DNA of 63,413 nt, filler included, from Aduncisulcus paluster (taxonomy: Eukaryota): the NCBI GenBank assembly GCA_024181965.1. It is 35 parts of 35 records of this genome, joined end to end, with 100 filler letters (N's around TTAATTAATTAA, not from the genome) between each part and the next. Parts side by side here need not be neighbours in the genome. Positions count along the whole stretch, not along the records: positions 7,806 to 8,864 come from BQXS01000548.1; 34 more parts are not named here. One strand, written 5' to 3'. Shown here piece by piece: positions 7,706 to 50,662 of this stretch. Below the pieces are notes generated by a model. The model did no database searches. It saw only the letters and a list, made by a program, of their open reading frames with translations, and was not told the origin of the DNA. Position 1 is the stretch's first letter, and each line of letters starts with the position of its first letter. A program made the translations under genes and the position numbers.

Positions 7706-8061
7706 NNNNNNNNNNNNNNNNNNNNNNNNNNNNNNNNNNNNNNNNNNNNTTAATTAATTAANNNNNNNNNNNNNNNNNNNNNNNNNNNNNNNNNNNNNNN
7801 NNNNNTATCAGAAACAATTATAATATTACTAATTATGGATTATTTATAATATTATCCTTCATCAATATGTTTACTAAGTGATTTAAAATACAACTCATTA
7901 TTAGAGCATATTATTCCTAAATTATGCAAAAAAAATATATATATACTATTTATTATACCAATAATCTTAAATTATAATATTATATTTCTCCCGTCAACCA
8001 TTCGGTGTAATTTTCACATATGCGCCCTTTTATTTTGACAACACTGCCATTATATAAAGCT

Positions 8062-8201
8062 GTTCCCCTGGGTCTGATCAACCCGGGGGAGCGTAAGTCT
8101 TATGATTTATTTGTTCATGTTCCGTTTTTGGCCCCTTGGTTGTCCCCCCCCATATCTCACTGTCATTGTCTCAAAATGGGGGGGGGACTCCAACGATTTT
8201 T
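8062..8201 (+). other. Two GC-rich hairpins plus conserved G8-ACTCCAACGATTTTT motif
   Basis: Stem 8062-8073/8081-8092; stem C8AT(8144-8153)/ATG9(8176-8186); 23-nt identity to the minus strand at 57311-57333. Confidence 0.7.
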
Positions 8202-8547
8202 ATTTTTTTGTTTGTAAATTAAGAAAAATTATAAAGTAAAAGATTTTTTATAGCGTTTAGTATATATTTTTTATCTACCGTAATACAGCAAGTATTATAC
8301 GTTGTACAATATGTTTAAACTCAGATAGGGACTGTTTTACATATATGTATTTACATATGTGAAAACAATATGTTGAACACATGTGCTACAGAAAATTTTA
8401 TTCGTTGTGACAGATCATATTCTCGGTAAAATAAATACTCTCTCATATGTTTTTATTGCTTAGATAATATTAATTTGCATTTTAATATGTAGATTTTATA
8501 CTTTGTAGGCTGATCAATATAAAATTTCAAATTTCCTTGTAAAAGAT

Positions 8548-8864
8548 ATGGCAAGAACCAAAACAAGGAAAACCAGAGCTGCAGTTGCAACCGAAGCTTG
8601 CATTCAAGCCTTTACCTCCCTCCAGGAGAAGAAACCCAAGGATTTTTGGGCGGCCCTTCACACCGTCCTCCCCGGGACAAAAGACGGGGAAATACCTCCT
8701 TCCCGTGAATCCGTGATTGCCCTGATTGGGCTTATGATCGACGATGCCCACTTTAAACACATAGTGGCCTGCAAGACCCCCCGAAAGCCCCTCCTGGCCA
8801 GACTGCTCTGCATCACAGGGAAACTTTTTCTCAGGATCGAACCCGCGGCGGGAGACTTTGTGAT
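8548..8864 (+). CDS. Divergent histone H3-like / H3-tail-mimic protein (3'-partial)
   Basis: Begins MARTKTRK; FW..L..V...E.P.S....IAL.G.MI motif shared with 49268-49822. Confidence 0.55.
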
Positions 8865-8964: not shown

Positions 8965-10690
8965 AATCTGACATTCCAATTGTTCTGGAAACAATGTACG
9001 GATAAGACATCTTGGGCCAGAATAATTTGAGAATAAATACCTCCAATAGGCATTGTTTGAAGCTGGATAAAAACATGATAATGACTTGACAATTTCTCTC
9101 ACTGCATTTCCTGGAAGTGATTGCAGACAATCATCATCTTCTTCAAACTCAAAAGCATCCATGGCACATGTGGAAAAGGGTAATATTTGGACATCTTTTT
9201 CTCTATATCGAAGGAATGAAGGAGAAAATGAAGATTTTCCACTGAAATTTGAAGATAAAAGTATCGGTTTTGTATTGGTTGGATCGAGATGTACTGGACC
9301 ATTGTAACGGAATTTCTTTGAATATCCAGAATAATTTGAAAATGGTTTTGCTCCAAGAATCCAGAGAGAATCGCTATCTTCCTCAAGTGGGGTACACAAC
9401 AACTTGGCAACTAATAAATCAGGAGAAGTTATCATAAGAATCTCTTCTTGGACTGAACCATGTCTTAGAACACCACCTCCAATCCTTTTGTTGGCAAAAT
9501 CTGTAACATTATACTTGATTTGACTTTCCACGGTCAACATCGAATCTTCAGGATCCGCAATGCTTATAATAGAGCTGAGATCATCATCAAAGCGTAAATA
9601 TTCATGATTGTGTTTGGAAGAAGAAGATTTTTTTCTGGATTGAGAGCGAAAAAATTCTTTGGAAATATTTTCGGGAGAGTATCTTGCAGGATCCTGTGAA
9701 TATTCATCATGAGAGGGGGCCTTTTTCCTGAAATACCGACGGATATCGACTTTCGAGATTGTTTTATAGATGAGAATAACATGATTTTCAGTCAAATGTT
9801 TTGATTTACCGTTGATATTGAGAGATAGGAAATATTGTAAAATGCAAGCACATTTTTCAACCTGACAAAGTGNNNNNNNNNNNNNNNNNNNNATCATCAA
9901 AGCGTAAATATTCATGATTGTGTTTGGAAGAAGAAGATTTTTTTCTGGATTGAGAGCGAAAAAATTCTTTGGAAATATTTTCGGGAGAGTATCTTGCAGG
10001 ATCCTGTGAATATTCATCATGAGAGGGGGCCTTTTTCCTGAAATACCGACGGATATCGACTTTCGAGATTGTTTTATAGATGAGAATAACATGATTTTCA
10101 GTCAAATGTTTTGATTTACCGTTGATATTGAGAGATAGGAAATATTGTAAAATGCAAGCACATTTTTCAACCTGACAAAGTGGAGATGAAGATGAACTTT
10201 TGGGGGTAGAATAAAGCATAAATTCCATGTCATTGTTTGGATGTGGAAATAAGTTGAAGAAAGAAGCTGCAACCAAACCAGCACACTCGAGAAGACTGAG
10301 GATCATAATAGGATGGTCTCTATCAACCATATCAAAAAGAATTGGTGCTCTAGAGGAAGATTTTGATTTTGATAATGATCGTAGAAATGAAAATAATGCA
10401 TAAAGACAAGATCTGAGAGCATTCTTCAAGATGTCACTCTTTGACATTACTGGTGATGATTTCTCATATATACGTTCAGTGGCTTGAGAAATAAGGGACA
10501 TTAATGAAGTTTTGTTTGCCTCGAGTAATGGGCATAAGCCCTTGAATACCTTAACAAAAAAATCCACAAATCTACCCTTATAATATTTGAGAGATTCAAT
10601 ATATTCCTGACATTTTGTACAAGCAGCAACGATATCTCCCCTTGAAATAAATTTTAAGTTCATAATTGCCACAAAAACAATATTTCTCAT
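8965..10690 (-). CDS. PARG: Poly(ADP-ribose) glycohydrolase (3'-partial; split by an assembly overlap)
   Basis: DFANKRIGGGVLRHGSVQEEI = PARG GGG-x-QEE catalytic signature; FSNYSGYS and AMDA motifs. Confidence 0.9.
9583..10182. repeat. Identical 290-bp duplication flanking a 20-N gap (assembly artefact)
   Basis: 9583-9872 equals 9893-10182. Confidence 0.9.
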
Positions 10691-11119: not shown

Positions 11120-14100
11120 ATGAAATTAAAGCACGATAAAACGATATATTCTGGTGGTAAGAGTTGGAAGATCATTTCTAAATTAGAATTTAGTGGAAAC
11201 TCTAAAAAACTTGCTGCTGTTTGTGATAAATTCATCAATATATTCGATGAGAAAGGAGAACGGAAGGATAAGTTTTTTACAAAACCAGCAAACAAAGGTC
11301 CTAAGAATTTTTTTATTACAGATTGTGCTTTTTATCATGATGGGTCGCGATTGGCCACTTGCCAAACTGATGGAGCTGTATTTGTGTTTAAGTTTGGAAA
11401 GGAGAAGAAATCCATTGGAAATCGGTTTCTTTTAGAAGTTCCGGCAACATGCATGTGTTGGCCAAAAGCTCTTGATAAGAATCTTCTCGTTGGTACTGCT
11501 ACTGGTGAGATAAAGCTTTGTGTTTCAAAAGGAAATACCATTGAAACAATATATTCTCCTTGCCCTGAGCCTGTAACGTGTATGAGTTATATCCCCGACT
11601 CTTCGACTGTCTTTGCTGGGTTTGCCAATGGTGATCTTCATATTCTGTCTCCTGATTCAAAAGATAAGAAAGCAACAAAATTATATTCATTCCCATGCCC
11701 AATCACGCACCTTAAATGTACCAAACATTCAGTATTGATTGGTCTTGCAAATGGTAGTCTTCTTGCGATGACTCCTAAGAATTCCCTAAGTTATCACTCA
11801 ATTATGCACTGTGAACCATGGGAAATCGAAATGCCTCGCTCCCAAAAACCTATTCAGGCCATATGTTGTGACCCTTCTGCTATGAGTTGTCTTGTTTTAC
11901 GCTCTCATACTTGTCTCATGCTTCGCTTTGGCTCTTCTCGGCAATGGGAATGTGCACGTGATGTGACGGTTCGGGATGGATTCTTTTCAGCCGCTGCTTG
12001 GAGAAATGATGGTGCTGTGTGCGTTATTGGAACAGTATATGGAGATATTGATATGTTTAGCGCTCGAATGCGCACTGTTCGTCTTGGGGACTATGAAGCC
12101 ACTTTTTCAACTCCCTCGTCGTTTATTCTCAGCAAGGAAGCAGAAGATATTGAAGGCGAGGATGGTGAGGGTCTCGGTCGTTGGGTCATCACCTCATCAG
12201 CTTCCGAGATATCCTCTGTCAAAGTTGTTCGTGACCGGTTTTTGGTTGCTCGGACACCCACTTCCCTCCTTGTCGGTGATTTGCTCGGTGGAGAGGAAGG
12301 AAGAGGAGTCTGGGGAGAAGTTCCCTGGAGAGGAGGAGGAAAAGAGAAATTCCTCTTCGACACTCCCGGAGTGGTTCTTATTCATAATGCTGGAGAAATT
12401 GTCGTTATTCCGTATGGGTCTGAGAATGTCCTCTGTACGGTCAGAACCGAACATGCCTCGCCGGCTCTCCTCAGTGTCCGTCTCGGAGTTGACGATGAAG
12501 TGATGGTTGAGAAAGGAGTGGCCTGTCTCCAGCCATCATCCACTCCGGATGATGATGAAGACCAATATCGATTCAAACGTTTCGCTTGTCTTGCTGATAG
12601 ATGTACCATTTCTGTTACATCCCTTGAAGGTTCCTCATTCATGCCCATATTCACTGTACAACATGACACTCCTATTGACTGGGTTGAGTTAAATGACCTT
12701 GCTAACCTCATGCTCTTTAGGGATCGTAAGAGACGTCTGTTCATGGTGGCCATCCCTCCTTCAATGGAAGAACAAGAAGCGATGAGGAAGTTCTACCTCG
12801 TTCATCCTCAGGCTCGACAGTTCTCTTCTGGCTCTGGCATGGCTTTTGAGGCTCATAACGCGACTCGATTACTGCTTGATAGCGTGGGTTACGTACAATG
12901 GGTTCCTGGATCTGATGTCTGTGTGGCTCAGAGTGGGGATCAGCTCTTTGTTTTCTACTCTTCTTCCGCTTCTGCCCATTCCAGACCTACCCAGATCATG
13001 GTCAAAGGAGAGGCTGTTGCTATCGAACGTGAGAGTGGTATGACGGTGGTTCTCGTTGAAGAGGAAGGAGAAGTGGCAGAGTATCAGCTCAGTGAACCAC
13101 TTATTCTCTTTGGGACTGCTCTGGATCGTGGGAATATGCACGGAGCAATCGCTGCACTCGAAGATCTCCCTATTGCCGATGCTGTTCCCCTGTGGAAACG
13201 ATTGGCCTCTGTCGCTATCGCTTGTCGCGACCTTGCCGCTGCCCAGGAAGCCTTTTCTGCCCTTGGTTTCACTACAAAAGCCAGGATGCTCCGCCAGTTG
13301 ATGTGGAAGGTCGAGAAGATGAGAGTGAAAGACCAGAAGAGTGATGGCGAGATTGATGCTGTCATTCAAAGCACTCTTGTTCTTCTTGAAGATAGTGATG
13401 TTGGAAGGACTCTTAGTGGTACAGTTAGTGGATCGATGGGGACTTCTGGGGATTCTTCCTCTTCATCTCCTTCTTCCTCCACTTCGATCTCAGCTTCTGT
13501 CTCTCTTCTTCTGTCCTTTGGACGTGTTGATGACGCCATTGCACTTAAAAAGACTGTTCTCGATTATAAGGGAGCTCTCGAGATTGCTGAGCAACATTTG
13601 GCTCCTTCTGAGGTATCTACAATGCGTGTGGAATTCGAAGAATGGCTCAAACGTACTGGTCAACAAGCTGAGCTAGGTCGTTTAAGCGAGAAGAGTGGAG
13701 ACTTCGAGGGTGCCGCTTCTCTATATCTTAAGGGTGGGGCCATCCCTCAGGCATGTGAACTCGTGAAGAAGCACGGCGTCTCTATGTTTTCCTCTGGAAT
13801 TATTGAGAACATTATCCAAAGGCTCAAACAGGGCAGGATGTATGGAACCTGTGGTGAGTTCTTGACTTTCTTGGGAAGATTCAATGAGGCGCTTGAGGAG
13901 TACAAGCGTGGAAAAGAATATCGGAACGCATTGACCCTTGCCCGTCAACGTTTCCCAGATCGTGTTCGTTTCCTTGAAAGTGAATGGGGAGACTATCTCG
14001 TTGCCCAACAAAGCCCTGACATTGCTGTTGGACATTACATTGAAGCAGGGGAAGGTATGAAAGCCCTTGAAGCTGCTCTTGCTGCCAGACAGTGGAAGAG

Positions 14101-15727
14101 CATTGTTCGTATCTTGCCCTCTCAAGACGTTGACAGTATTCAGGTCAAGGAATTCACAGGACGTCTTGCTGAGGCGATGGTTTCTGTTGGACGTGTGAAA
14201 GAAGGTATATCATTCTTTTTGAAGGCTGGTCTACTCAAACGTGCGGTTGATGTTTGTGTCCGTGAAGGTGAGTTCGCTGAAGCCAAGAAGATTGCCTCAT
14301 CCATGTCTCCTTCTGAGGCCTCTGCGTTGTTGTCTGAACATGCTCATGTATTTGTGAAGAAAGGAAAGATTCATGAAGGGTGTGACATGTTGGTCACAAT
14401 TGGACACATTGATGATGCTCTGTCTCTCTGTTTGAAGAATGGAGCCTACGATCATGCAGTCACTGTTGCCAAGAGATATAAGCCTGATGCCCTCGAGGAT
14501 GTGAGTATCAGCGTTAGTAATTCTCTCGCTAAGGAAGGCAAATATGACCATGCCGAACAGATTCTTTTGAGTGGAGGGTATTCCAAGGCTGCTGTCGATA
14601 TGTATGTCAAATTCAGGATGTTTAGAGAGGCTTTAAGAATTGGGAGGGGAATGTGCAACGATACTGTTCCCAGCACTGCTTATATATGGTACAAAACTCT
14701 TGGAGAATCACTTGATTCAATGGAAATTGTTGCCAAGGAAGGATGTGCCAACGAGTTGATGAACTATGCAATCAATATGGAAGACTTCGATACCGCTGCT
14801 TTGGCTGCCCAACACACTGATAACCCTGTAATCAGTGCTGAGAAAGTTGAAGTGGGCAAAGCAGTGTGGCTCGAGGAACAAGGAAGACACACTGAGGCTG
14901 AAGCGTCATTCATTGAAGCCAAGAAACCAAGGGAGGCCGTCTTGATGTGGATCCATGTTGGAGACTTTGAGTCTGCCATGCGTGTTGCTTCCGACCATTG
15001 TCCTTCCTCCGTTCAGGAGGTCAAGGTTGCAGAAGCTGAGGAACTTATTCGTAGTGGAGATGTTGGTGGTGGAGCTCGTCTTCTTGTCCAAGCTAACAAG
15101 GCCCACGAGGCTGTGATCGTCTTGAAAGAATCTCACATGTGGAGTGCTGCTCTTGCTGTTGCCAAAGCCCATGTTCCTCACATGGTCAGTGAACTTGCTG
15201 CCGCCTATGCTCATTCTGAAGGAAGTGTTCAGCGTGCTTCCTCACCCACTCGTGTTGACTCTCAGCCTGTGCGTTCTCAGATGACAATGAATGTTGATGA
15301 AGATGAAGATGACATGTTAGCATCCAGAACAACGTCAAAGGCTGCGGAATCAAAGAGGGGTGAAGCTGCGCGTCAGCATGAAACTCACGATTCTTTGATC
15401 AGTCAGAGGAAATGGGTGGAAGCCTTCGAGGTTGCTGCCAGTGAGTCTCCTCAGGCCATTGCCCATGTTGGAGGTGCTCTGTGCACGGAGCTTATACATG
15501 CCAAACAGTACATTGCTGCTCTGTGTGTGATGTTGGATAGTTCATTCAAACCTCATTCAAACAAGGAGTTTGTTATGATGTCAGATGCTTTGAAAAATGT
15601 CGCAGGTCAGTGTATTTCAAGTGCTCAGACTTATCCAAAACCTTTCCTCGAGAGTGTGTCTGCTCTTCCTGATGAAGCTTTCCCAAAACAATTGTATTCT
15701 ATTTTTGGAGCTGAGAACACTTTATTG
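11120..15727 (+). CDS. IFT172: Intraflagellar transport protein 172 (WD40 + TPR/alpha-solenoid), 3'-partial
   Basis: GERKDKFFTKPA, HDTPIDWVELN, YVQWVPGSDVCVAQSG, LESEWGDYLV, AEASFIEAKKPREAVLMW motifs. Confidence 0.95.
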
Positions 15728-46476: not shown

Positions 46477-49167
46477 GGACTACCCTTGTGGAACCAAGCC
46501 TGTTAAAAACCTTGCGATTAACGGCTAGGATTGGCGAGGAAGCGACCCCGGAAGAGTTGCATGAAGCACTGAACAAGAAGTTTGCCGCGTCCACGACCCA
46601 GGCTTATTATGACCAATTAAAAGAAATGAAACTTGAGGTTCTGACTCCGACCGCTCTGGTGAAGTACACTGCCGACTTCCAGGAGATTGTGGACCGTCAT
46701 CCAGACTTTGGTGATGATGAGCATGTGGCTGCGATGTTTTTACGAGGATTAAAGATTCCCCGTCTTTCGGAGCGGACTCGATCTGAAGTTGACACGGCTG
46801 GGAAGAAGAGTGACCTCGAATTCGTAATTCAACAAACATTCACTGAACTGGAAGAAATGGTTGCCATAAAAGACGAGGTTCTCAAATATTCCAAGTCTTT
46901 CGGATTAAGCGTCCGTCAATTCAAACCCTCCTGGACTGGAGGCAAGCGTAGACGTGCCGAGGAACCCCTAGATAGGAAACCGATTAGATGCCATCGATGT
47001 GGCAAACTTGGGCACAAGGCTGCAAATTGTAGAAGCTTACCCGACAAACCTTCACAATCCACTAAAACAACATCAAACGAAAAGAGACATTCCTTCACCA
47101 AGTCAACAGGGAATAAAAACTTTTCGGTCTATCTGGCGTTATGCTTAAACGAATTTTAGAAAGGTTTTGACACCCCTGGACTGGTAGACACTGGTTCTGA
47201 GCTCAACATAATGAGTCGGGAACTGTGGGAAATGTTGGATCCAAAAGGTAAGATAGAAAAAGAGATAACAGATATTATTTTGGAACTCGCCGATGGATCA
47301 ACTCGGAAAGTATCCGAGAGAGTTAGGATACTGGTGAAAATGGTTGGAGCGATGGATAAGCAAATTGAATTCTGGGCAGATTTCATTTTGCTAGACATTA
47401 AATCAGAAGCCAGACATAAAGTAATAATTGGTTCGGAAACTGCTTCAAATGTTGGTTTGATAGACCTGACATTACCAATTAAGACTGATAAATATATCCC
47501 GGAAGATTGGGAAGAATGTGATTTCGATAGTTGGGACAAAGGTAATCTGGAGTGCGATAAACCAGAACTCGATGACGAGATTGGGCCGATCTTACGTCAT
47601 TACGAGGAACGGGATTCCCTCAACAGAGCAGCCAGCGTCGAGCCGATGAAAATCATATTGAAACCAGAGAGTAATCCAGTTGCTCAACCACCAAGGAATT
47701 TACCTTACAAGAAGGAAAAATATGTAACTGAAGAGATTCAGGACTTGTTGGAAAAAGGCTACATAACACCGTCATGCAGCCCATGGTCCTCGCCAGTTGT
47801 GGTGGTAGGAAAGAAAGATGGTGGGTTCAGATTGTGCGTAGACTACAGATTAGTCAAGAACACATAATTGAAGATAGGTTCCACTGCCTAGAATAGATGA
47901 TGTTTGGGCAACATTGGAAGGCTCAATAATTTTCGCGGTATTGGATTTAAAGTCCGGATACCATCAGATGCCCTTGGCCGAAGAATCCAGACAGATAACA
48001 GCTTTCGTTACTCGTGACGGATTATTCGAGTTTACAAGGGTACCATTCGGTATTAAAACAGCTCCGGCGTTTTTCCAAAGAACGATGGTGTCAATACTAC
48101 ATGATTTATTATATTCAGCATGCTTGGTCTACCTAGACGATATCATTATTTTTGGCAAAACATATGATGAATTCGTGGCCAACTTGAAGAAGATTTTGAC
48201 GAGATTGTCGGAGGTGGGGCTGTCCTTGAACAGGAAGAAATGTCAGATCGGCGTGGGAGACGTCGAGTATCTGGGAATGCTTATCAACAAATATGGGAAA
48301 AAGATTTCGCCGTCAAGGTTGAGAGCGTTGAGATTAATAGATACTCCCAGGACAAAGAAAGGTATAAGAAGAATAATGGGGCGTTAAACTATATGAGGGA
48401 GTTTATTGATCACTACTCAGAAGTAACCGAACCAATATCAAGACTTCTGTCCGGACCAGAACATAATATACAATGGGGACAAGAACAAGAATCTGCTTGG
48501 GAGGAAACGCTGGACCTCCTCGAGAAAAATATCACTTTAGTACATTTTGATGACGAAGCAGAAATTTTTGTAAGGACAGATGCGTCAACTATAGGGGCTG
48601 GTGGAATGCTGGGTATGATGAAGGATGGAAAAGAATACCCGATAGCATTTTACAGCCACAAATTCACGGAAACCCAGAAGCATTGGTGTACTCTGGAACA
48701 AGAGGCTTTTGCTCTTTTCTGGGTCCTTACAAAGGCGAGGAAATATCTGTGGGGTCGAAGTTTCACGGTGGAAACTGACCATAGAAACCTCACCTTTATG
48801 CTAAAATGTGAATCAGCAAAGGTCCAAAGATGGAGGATGTCGGTGGCTGACTTCAACTTTGTCATTAAACATATTCCAGGAAAACTTAATAAGGTAGCTG
48901 ACACATTGTCAAGAGGTTTCCATAAGACCAGTATAACACCCTCGAGCTGTAAACTCAGCAGCCCAATTCAGTCAGATAATCATCAACTCAATATCTTATT
49001 GAAAATCAAAGATGCACAGGAATCAAGTTTATCGGATACAGAAAAGAAAAACTTGTTTTTGCTTGATGAATTCTGGGTGACTGCAGAAGACAAAATCTTC
49101 ATCCCAGCCAAGGAGACCAAACTGCAAGATGATCTCGCCAAGATGGCACACAGGCACCCTCTGGGGG
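46477..49167 (+). mobile_element. Degenerate Ty3/Gypsy gag-PR-RT-RNaseH (in-frame TAG at 47157, frameshifts near 47865 and 48380)
   Basis: CHRCGKLGHKAANC; LVDTGS; LDLKSGYHQ, YLDD; TDAST, ETDHRNL, HIPGKLNKVADTLSR. Confidence 0.95.
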
Positions 49168-49267: not shown

Positions 49268-49822
49268 CCATGAGGCACAGAGCAAGGCTAACTTAATGAT
49301 AACTTCATCTTCTGAGGGCACAGCAGTTATCACCACAAGAAGGGCAGCCAGAGTGTGGGCCCTGGAGTAGAGGCTTGGGGAGAGGTCGGCAGAGATCTCT
49401 ATCATCTCTCCGGCGAGAGCGATGAGGAGGTCAACGGAGGGGAGCTCGTAATCCTCGGCATGGGCATCAGCCACTACACCGAGGTTCCTCCAGAAGGTCG
49501 GAATATCACGGGGCCTACGGTGGAGGGCGGCGACTGCGGCTGTGGCGGCGTTACTTGCTGATATCGCAAGTGGAGCTGTGGCAACCCTTCTCTTTCCCGT
49601 TCCTTTTCCCCCGCGAGAGGAACTGGAGGAGGACCGGGAGGAACTGGAGGAGGACCGGGAGGAACTGGAGGAGGACCGGGAGGAAGAGCTGCCAGCTCCA
49701 GTGGAGGAAGTGCGGGAAACCTTGACGGCTATCTGCCTCTTCTTCGTGCCAGTGGCAGCCGCCACGGTCTTATCAGCGGTTTGTTGGCTAGTCTTTTTAC
49801 CAGTTTGTTTGGTGCGTGCCAT
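49268..49822 (-). CDS. Divergent histone H3-like protein with Ser-rich tail insertion (3'-partial)
   Basis: MARTKQTGKKTS; KRQIAVKVSRTS resembles RKQLATKAARKS; possible degenerate alpha1-L1-alpha2. Confidence 0.6.
49617..49679. repeat. 21-bp perfect tandem repeat x3 (encodes SSSSSSR)
   Basis: GAGGAACTGGAGGAGGACCGG x3. Confidence 0.95.
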
Positions 49823-50077: not shown

Positions 50078-50521
50078 TTATTGTTTGTAAGCGAGCCACG
50101 GAAGGTCGGCGAAGTAGGATGTGTACAATTCAAGGACTTTGACATCTGGCCATCTCTCAATGCGAGTTCTAAACTTCTCATCAGCTCTAAGTTCTTCACA
50201 TATTATCCTCTTCCTCTCGCTATCAGGCAACCTGCGGTTGTTTTTCACGTCTTTTCTATCATACTCATACTGACAGAGGGCATCGAGTAATCTCACAGCA
50301 ATCTTTTTGGAAGTGAGCTCGATGCTTGTGAAGAAGGATTTAGCAGTGGATAGGAAGGCTTCGAGGTTCTCAGCAGTAACAGTTAACTCTCCAGTTATGA
50401 GGGCTGGAATAGTGGACTGGATCATTGTGTCCATCTGAGAAAACCTACGTTTTGTTAACTGATAGACCCTTTTTAGGTTCTTATTGACCTTAACGAGTTG
50501 CTGATGATGAGTCGTTTCCAT
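50078..50521 (-). CDS. Orphan helical protein immediately upstream of the H3-like gene
   Basis: AAAATG start, 147-aa ORF, no family recognised. Confidence 0.55.
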   Translation of the reverse strand: METTHHQQLVKVNKNLKRVYQLTKRRFSQMDTMIQSTIPALITGELTVTAENLEAFLSTAKSFFTSIELTSKKIAVRLLDALCQYEYDRKDVKNNRRLPDSERKRIICEELRADEKFRTRIERWPDVKVLELYTSYFADLPWLAYKQ

Positions 50522-50662
50522 TTTCTTATACAAAAATGATAGTAGTTTTTGTGGCCATATTANNNNNNNNNNNNNNNNNNNNNNNNNNNNNNNNNNNNNN
50601 NNNNNNTTAATTAATTAANNNNNNNNNNNNNNNNNNNNNNNNNNNNNNNNNNNNNNNNNNNN

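Follow-up and report, generated by a model that had tools for sequence, protein, structure and literature searches.

Cargo genes of CACTA-type transposons in Aduncisulcus paluster encode proteins with a histone H3-like N-terminus and a predicted solenoid body

The closest described systems are transposons of the CMCT clade that carry chromatin cargo, namely the TET/JBP-carrying EnSpm, ESTA and Plavaka elements of fungi (PMC12730594). They share with the elements described here CAC...GTG ends, a DDE transposase bearing C(2)C and H(3)H motifs, and genes acting on epigenetic marks. The cargo differs: here it comprises a SET gene, two OTU/zinc-finger genes, a gene family that we call ORF-X and a fusion of an H3 tail to a predicted solenoid, the host is a fornicate, and no TET/JBP gene was seen. 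Histone methyltransferase or OTU protease genes are also carried by the SET-containing HarbingerS and MuDR transposons of Phytophthora, as cited in PMC12730594, and by OTU-carrying Helentrons (PMC6431247), but these belong to other superfamilies, and the available excerpts of the two sources do not mention a histone-tail mimic for them. The VANDAL elements of Arabidopsis, whose VANC proteins counteract silencing (PMC5735166), likewise combine accessory proteins with tandem short non-coding motifs, and the function proposed below would be analogous; however, VANC is Mutator cargo acting on DNA methylation, and no relationship in sequence was seen as far as compared, the proteins studied here giving no Pfam match.

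Histone mimicry itself is known from PAF15, whose N-terminal VRTK is read by the PHD finger of UHRF1 (PMC9757060), and from motifs in influenza NS1 and SARS-CoV-2 ORF8 (PMC11738798). The common feature is an H3K4-like motif on a non-histone protein, at the very N-terminus in PAF15 as here. Unlike those mimics, the proteins of this study are encoded by a DNA transposon, apparently derive their tip from host H3, with which they share as many as 8 of 10 residues as well as a second stretch, and have a predicted solenoid body. SET, OTU or TET cargo, large multi-ORF EnSpm elements and viral histone mimics are already in print; a transposon-encoded histone-tail mimic was not found in the open-access literature searched.

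The gene at 8548 and its paralogue

The window, by which we mean the whole 63,413-nt stretch of DNA analysed, is a string of short contigs from a fragmented assembly (29.6 Mb, 23,235 contigs) of the free-living fornicate A. paluster (PMC9933649). The gene under study, which we assign to subfamily A, has the following features.

8548..8864, plus strand: 5' part (105 codons) of a subfamily A cargo gene, H3-tail/armadillo-like by prediction; the contig end truncates the ORF
8548..8577, plus strand: initiator Met and minimal H3-like tip ARTKTRKTR; 5 of the first 10 positions equal host H3
8584..8813, plus strand: beginning of the predicted solenoid, covering the opening helices of the family profile
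8814..8837, plus strand: 24 nt foreign to the family, replacing 15 nt of most copies and encoding 'ITGKLFLRI'
7806..8409, no strand assigned: right part of a ~840-bp non-autonomous element with ends CACAACGAA...TTCGTTGTG; right end at 8401-8409

The preliminary description had read MARTKTRKTR...FWAALHTVLPGTKDGEIPPSRESVIALIGLMID...LLARLLCIT, and this is indeed the translation of 8548-8862 (plus strand). Its final 'IT', which had been matched to the second protein of the window, could not be confirmed as a family feature: four of the six contigs spanning the site read LLCMVSSMDEPAAG, most copies have LLCMVSS where the 8548 protein has LLCIT, and the foreign 24 nt are responsible. That segment recurs in one other contig, where it continues into unrelated DNA, and is either an insertion remnant or an assembly chimera. 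When it is set aside, subfamily A copies diverge by less than 1%, which points to recent spread. Several are damaged, with two 1-nt deletions, one change of ATG to ATT, and insertions. We infer the MARTK start codon from the shift in GC from 0.21 to 0.49 at the ATG and from the lack of an upstream in-frame ATG in all six copies examined; the assignment stays provisional because a possible splice acceptor lies 39 nt 5' of the ATG with the frame open. Judged from overlapping contigs, the whole protein would have roughly 350 aa. The ~840-bp element, whose right part makes up the opening 604 bp of the contig bearing the 8548 gene, is inserted 138 bp upstream of the ATG, beside a 2-bp AC duplication at 8410-8411, as seen against empty sites in four other contigs. 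The element has two internal hairpins, its core is repeated in about 25 contigs, and it is separate from the CACTA-type element discussed below.

The second gene of the window belongs to subfamily B1.

49269..49822, minus strand: 5' part (184 codons) of the subfamily B1 paralogue; the contig end truncates the ORF
49691..49741, minus strand: second H3-like stretch, KRQIAVKVSRTSSTGAG, resembling host H3 RKQIAVKAARKTSTTAAG (p 0.0035, 2000 shuffles)
50078..50533, minus strand: ORF-X, an unnamed cargo gene family, in tandem with and upstream of the B1 gene; 33 genome matches

Its truncated protein, translated from 49822-49271 (minus strand), begins MARTKQTGKK, of which 8 of 10 residues equal host H3, and continues through a Ser/Arg-rich linker into the solenoid body. 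The two proteins had been proposed to belong to one multicopy family. Direct BLASTP finds little similarity between them, at 14/41 identities and an E of 6e-4 for a single comparison. A profile built from six other subfamilies, with every 8548-type sequence left out, recognises the 8548 protein at 11.9 bits (E 4.5e-6; the best of 500 shuffles reached 4.4 bits), and downstream pieces of the 8548 subfamily score up to 81 bits on it. With this profile alignment significant and further members present in the genome, the two ORFs are true homologues. The 8548 protein has 11 matches on 9 contigs, nearly all above 85% identity; the 49822 protein has 17 on 16 contigs, 5 of them at only 31-35%. The suggestion to look beyond this genome yielded family members, 13 relatives among 1.84 billion representative proteins, but none outside A. 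paluster, a free-living relative of Giardia, to which all 13 are traceable, twelve through the name on their records and one through identity with a contig of the family. A separate database search gave five relatives, four named A. paluster and one encoded in the window.

The core was also described as H3-like, and this did not hold. None of the family members tested matches the Pfam histone family (PF00125), and none of the 20 PF00125 matches in the genome falls on a family contig. BLASTP of the 8548 protein against host H3 gives no alignment, and comparison of the family profile with H3 gives a probability of 0.05; the six-subfamily profile does not report host H3 and scores the host H3 variant at -2.1. 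Likeness to H3 ends after 5-10 residues, apart from a second stretch resembling H3 17-30 that some subfamilies have. As a separate observation, the genome holds a diverged true H3 variant of 149 aa with an extended tail (L072, G000:C12414, 1914-1468, minus strand), the canonical H3 genes encoding 139 aa.

Fold of the conserved core

The conserved core of ~320 residues is predicted to be all-helical and armadillo/HEAT-like. The structure was predicted for subfamily E, for which one contig holds the whole body, from 20 mostly partial rows; subfamily E is linked to subfamily A at E 1e-17. The model (pLDDT 76, pTM 0.76) is a 16-helix solenoid, and its best structural matches are Kap60 (importin-alpha; Z 16.2, rmsd 4.3, 281 aligned), beta-catenin (Z 16.0) and Armc8 (Z 15.6), with the predicted body sharing with these armadillo-repeat proteins a superhelical all-alpha fold over ~280 residues at 8-11% identity and an rmsd of about 4 A. 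Foldseek with this model returned no PDB match at E<=0.001, and helical repeats reach high scores easily, so that we claim only the general solenoid class. The ESM neighbours are all of the ARM clan (features 0.90-0.93, low recognition), and 0 of 20 members match an ARM Pfam family at E<=0.1. PDB sequence searches with the body and with the neighbouring OTU1 protein gave nothing below E 0.29. No specific armadillo family can be named for the body.

Selection on this body is purifying. A comparison of dN/dS had been proposed; constraint is seen in the body, at 0.18-0.41 in seven of ten pairs (dS 0.2-0.9; one near-identical pair gave 0.52, and two were saturated), but not clearly in the tail, where codons 1-36 gave 0.95, 0.26 and 0.42 in three B copies. 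Beyond its first residues, the tail is loosely constrained.

Transposon context and neighbouring genes

The family travels in CACTA-type elements, and two contigs display the arrangement best.

C11332 (L088), 7.5 kb: CACTAG end at 679, repeat array, ORF-X, OTU2/zinc finger, MARTK gene, convergent OTU1/zinc finger, transposase C-terminus
C9703 (L187): transposase, SET gene, array, and a CACTAG end of the same subtype as in C11332

The subterminal array of C11332 spans ~500 bp with 44 TACCA/TGGTA motifs, and its MARTK gene, of subfamily E, has a frameshift in the tandem-repeat linker. Across the genome the end motif CACTA[GT]CGTTCCG occurs 45 times, against once for the control; the ends, left and right, have 38 distinct flanks and two internal types, and 18-86 TACCA/TGGTA motifs lie within 260-908 bp behind the four ends examined. 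Terminal inverted repeats of the form CAC...GTG are present, with single contigs showing one end per copy at most. As to a 2-5 bp target-site duplication of the large element, thirteen left/right flank pairs have 3-4 nt in common, and no empty site was found among the loci examined. The transposase aligns with the D, D, C(2)C, H(3)H, E motifs, a signature described for EnSpm, Plavaka and their kin (PMC12730594). It has no match in Pfam; in the ESM Atlas, 42% of the members of its top cluster (0.97) are labelled Plavaka, Transposase_21 is also listed, and recognition was 2210, below the 2300 mark. The MARTK genes are cargo of multi-gene DNA transposons of the CACTA/EnSpm-Plavaka type (CMCT clade).

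A position inside the element is seen directly for subfamily E, where one end lies on the gene's own contig. For subfamily A, a series of 17 overlaps at 94-100% identity connects ORF-X and OTU2 with the MARTK gene, OTU1 and SET; no transposase or terminus was reached from this chain by high-identity overlap, only an 85% match over 314 bp to the C11332 subterminal region, and linking short contigs in this way could combine different copies. The genes are arranged differently from one subfamily to another. In a side observation, the region upstream of the A gene is joined to two different OTU2 contexts (L031 versus L029 and L181), which suggests cassette shuffling between elements. Taken together with the failure to find a histone fold, we are highly confident that this family is non-histone, solenoid-type cargo of a CMCT transposon.

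Other origins were considered. No viral fold match was obtained at E<=0.001, and the context is that of a DDE transposase with CACTA ends, not of a Polinton-like or other viral element; the neighbours give no support to a retrotransposon gag. An element with a tyrosine recombinase was rejected too, as the recombinase/SET ORF beside a gene fragment in C9964 has 2 genome matches and falls outside the recurring gene order. That ORF (L050/L092, G000:C9964, 2407-961, minus strand) is tyrosine-recombinase-like by a Phage_integrase match at E 0.0074, below cut-off; it passes, with a break in frame, into a SET-like C-terminus, and a further fragment is found in C12756. A fusion of recombinase and SET would be unusual.

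Among the cargo genes, a convergent OTU1 gene accompanies the MARTK gene in five of the six contigs that have its 3' end plus more than 600 bp of flank. The structure predicted for OTU1 resembles OTUD1 (Foldseek E 1.1e-5; Z 13.6, rmsd 2.3 over 126), and OTU1 keeps the D-x-x-C motif and the downstream His, which supports a predicted OTU-like deubiquitinase fold. Its C-terminal zinc domain has a weak WRKY/GCM-like match to AFT2 (Z 5.4), and its relatives in the databases number two, both from A. paluster. OTU2 was assigned by motif only. An ORF-X copy 98% identical to that of the window adjoins a transposase gene in L188.

In subfamilies A, B3 and G, overlapping contigs connect the SET gene with the MARTK gene. 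The SETs of the cargo have intact motifs (Pfam SET E 5e-17, 6e-11), are 35-45% identical and multicopy (19 of 27 genome matches at E<=2e-20), and in a SET tree they group together, separately from three host SETs. Their best solved match is MLL1/KMT2A, an H3K4 enzyme (E 3e-18, 2e-17), and by this match they would resemble H3K4-type methyltransferases; against them, however, the score of yeast Set1 does not exceed that of SETD2 or G9a. A further SET type (L144/L193, G000:C11425; L056, G000:C11124) is sister to the cargo SETs (95/93), and one copy of it is truncated by the small non-autonomous element; it is possibly another mobile SET family.

The H3-like tip and what it may do

The start pattern MARTK has 26 matches genome-wide, of which 16 are this family, 4 are H3 genes and 6 are unrelated; a reversed-pattern control gave 9. 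Five subfamilies have a visible start, and four begin exactly with MARTK.

Subfamily A: MARTKTRKTR
Subfamily B: MARTKQTGKK
Subfamily C: MARTKQNARD
Subfamily E: MARTKQTMRE
Subfamily D: MPRIKQKPGK

The proposal that ARTK and the core are kept while tail length varies holds across the diverged multicopy family. The bodies of A, B, C and E are only 18-29% identical; of the 278 columns they share, 19 do not vary, at most 2 of these in succession, with terminal branches of 1.1-1.5 changes per site in the body tree; A-R-T-K is invariant in these four, for a naive expectation of 2e-5. Within ARTK the synonymous codons differ (GCA/GCT, AGA/CGC/CGT, ACC/ACA), and the invariance of the residues in spite of this argues for selection on the protein and, for A and B, against recent re-copying from H3. 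The start of D (MPRIKQ), known from a single frameshifted contig, has lost A1 and T3. The K9 position holds K in B and D, and D/E in C and E. The tip is probably a selected mimic of H3.

Its source can be approached through the second H3-like stretch. Besides B1, shuffle tests gave p 0.02-0.03 for B3, C and D (8 tests per reference, uncorrected); A lacks the stretch (p 0.89), and neither E (p 0.71-0.94) nor B2 (p 0.10) reaches significance. Solved canonical H3s have QLATK at this site, whereas host H3 and B1 both follow QIAVK (RQIAVK in B1). As B1 tracks the H3 of the host lineage, the tip was likely captured from a host H3 gene.

We suggest the following scheme. The 5' end of an H3 gene of the host lineage would have been fused, in an ancestral element, to an armadillo/HEAT-like scaffold. 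Removal of the initiator Met would expose a free A1-R2-T3-K4 end, the kind of end on which H3K4 readers and writers act. R2 is read by WDR5-type proteins. PHD fingers require a free amino group, that of A1 in ARTK or of V1 in the VRTK of PAF15 (PMC9757060). The tip could then act as bait or decoy for such host proteins, or as a substrate for the SET enzyme that the element encodes; the solenoid, for its part, might bind another element protein seated on the repeat-rich element ends, so that the element would keep active chromatin, escape silencing or select targets. Met removal, expression, any binding and the direction of the effect are all conjectured here. Histone mimicry fits best because the tip sits at exact residue 1, the scaffold is of a protein-binding type, a SET gene and two OTU genes lie alongside, and the ends carry motif arrays; we therefore lean, if only slightly, towards an H3-tail mimic on a protein-binding scaffold that acts in anti-silencing or chromatin targeting. 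More tentatively, the cargo could form a whole chromatin toolkit, with an H3 tip on an array-tethered scaffold, an H3K4-type SET and two DNA-binding deubiquitinases, in which the tip would be methylated or read, would recruit or decoy host readers, and the element would be marked active.

The alternative that survives best, though we consider it unlikely, is that capture of the H3 5' end supplied a ready-made NLS or strong translation start, the solenoid serving transposition in a way unrelated to histone marks. Tails and linkers are K/R-rich in all members, importin-alpha is the best structural match, and the basic N-terminus of importin-alpha binds its own groove. H3 residues 1-28 also serve as an NLS in yeast (PMC5677370); however, according to the same source, H3 1-11 is disordered and not critical for Kap123 binding, which weakens this alternative since the family keeps residues 1-4. 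Basic residues alone should have sufficed for an NLS, yet A, B, C and E all keep A1 and T3.

We think it quite improbable that the tip exists solely as a dedicated substrate or activator for the cargo SET, an internal switch not aimed at host chromatin factors. The linkage of SET and MARTK genes in three subfamilies and the H3K4 enzyme as best SET match would suit such a switch, but an enzyme and its private substrate could drift together, and ARTK still equals host H3 among elements whose SETs are 35-45% identical; the second stretch of B1, moreover, follows the host-specific QIAVK. A neutral relic, in which the first codons of an old fusion persist by descent or start-context constraint with no present function, is very unlikely. 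It would account for D having neither A1 nor T3, for the many broken copies and for the tail dN/dS near 1 in one pair, but not for four consecutive invariant residues with synonymous changes beside saturated bodies in which at most 2 invariant positions adjoin. The reading as diverged variants of histone H3 can be dismissed, since the identity of MARTKQT with the N-terminus of host H3 in B and E stands against the failure to match a histone fold by Pfam, BLASTP or profile comparison, a ~320-aa body with a solenoid model, and a host that already has ordinary H3 genes and one variant.

If histone mimicry is correct, a strategy known from viruses and a few cellular proteins would have been turned by a transposon against its host. 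If functional, this would be a new counter-silencing strategy, and the R2/K4 tip kept by the elements would show which H3 residues matter to chromatin control in one deep-branching, poorly studied lineage of eukaryotes. The small defined gene set of tip-scaffold, SET and OTU makes the interplay amenable to in vitro work.

Further sequences came to attention. The window contains a Ty3/gypsy-like pol fragment at 46477-49167, recognised by eye from its RNase H region. At 11120-15727 and 8965-10690 it holds what we take to be a long WD40/TPR-type ORF resembling IFT172 and, on the opposite strand, a PARG-like gene. Elsewhere in the assembly, L115 (G000:C5387) has an ORF that is presumably like a bacterial NADH dehydrogenase subunit N, and is a probable contaminant contig.
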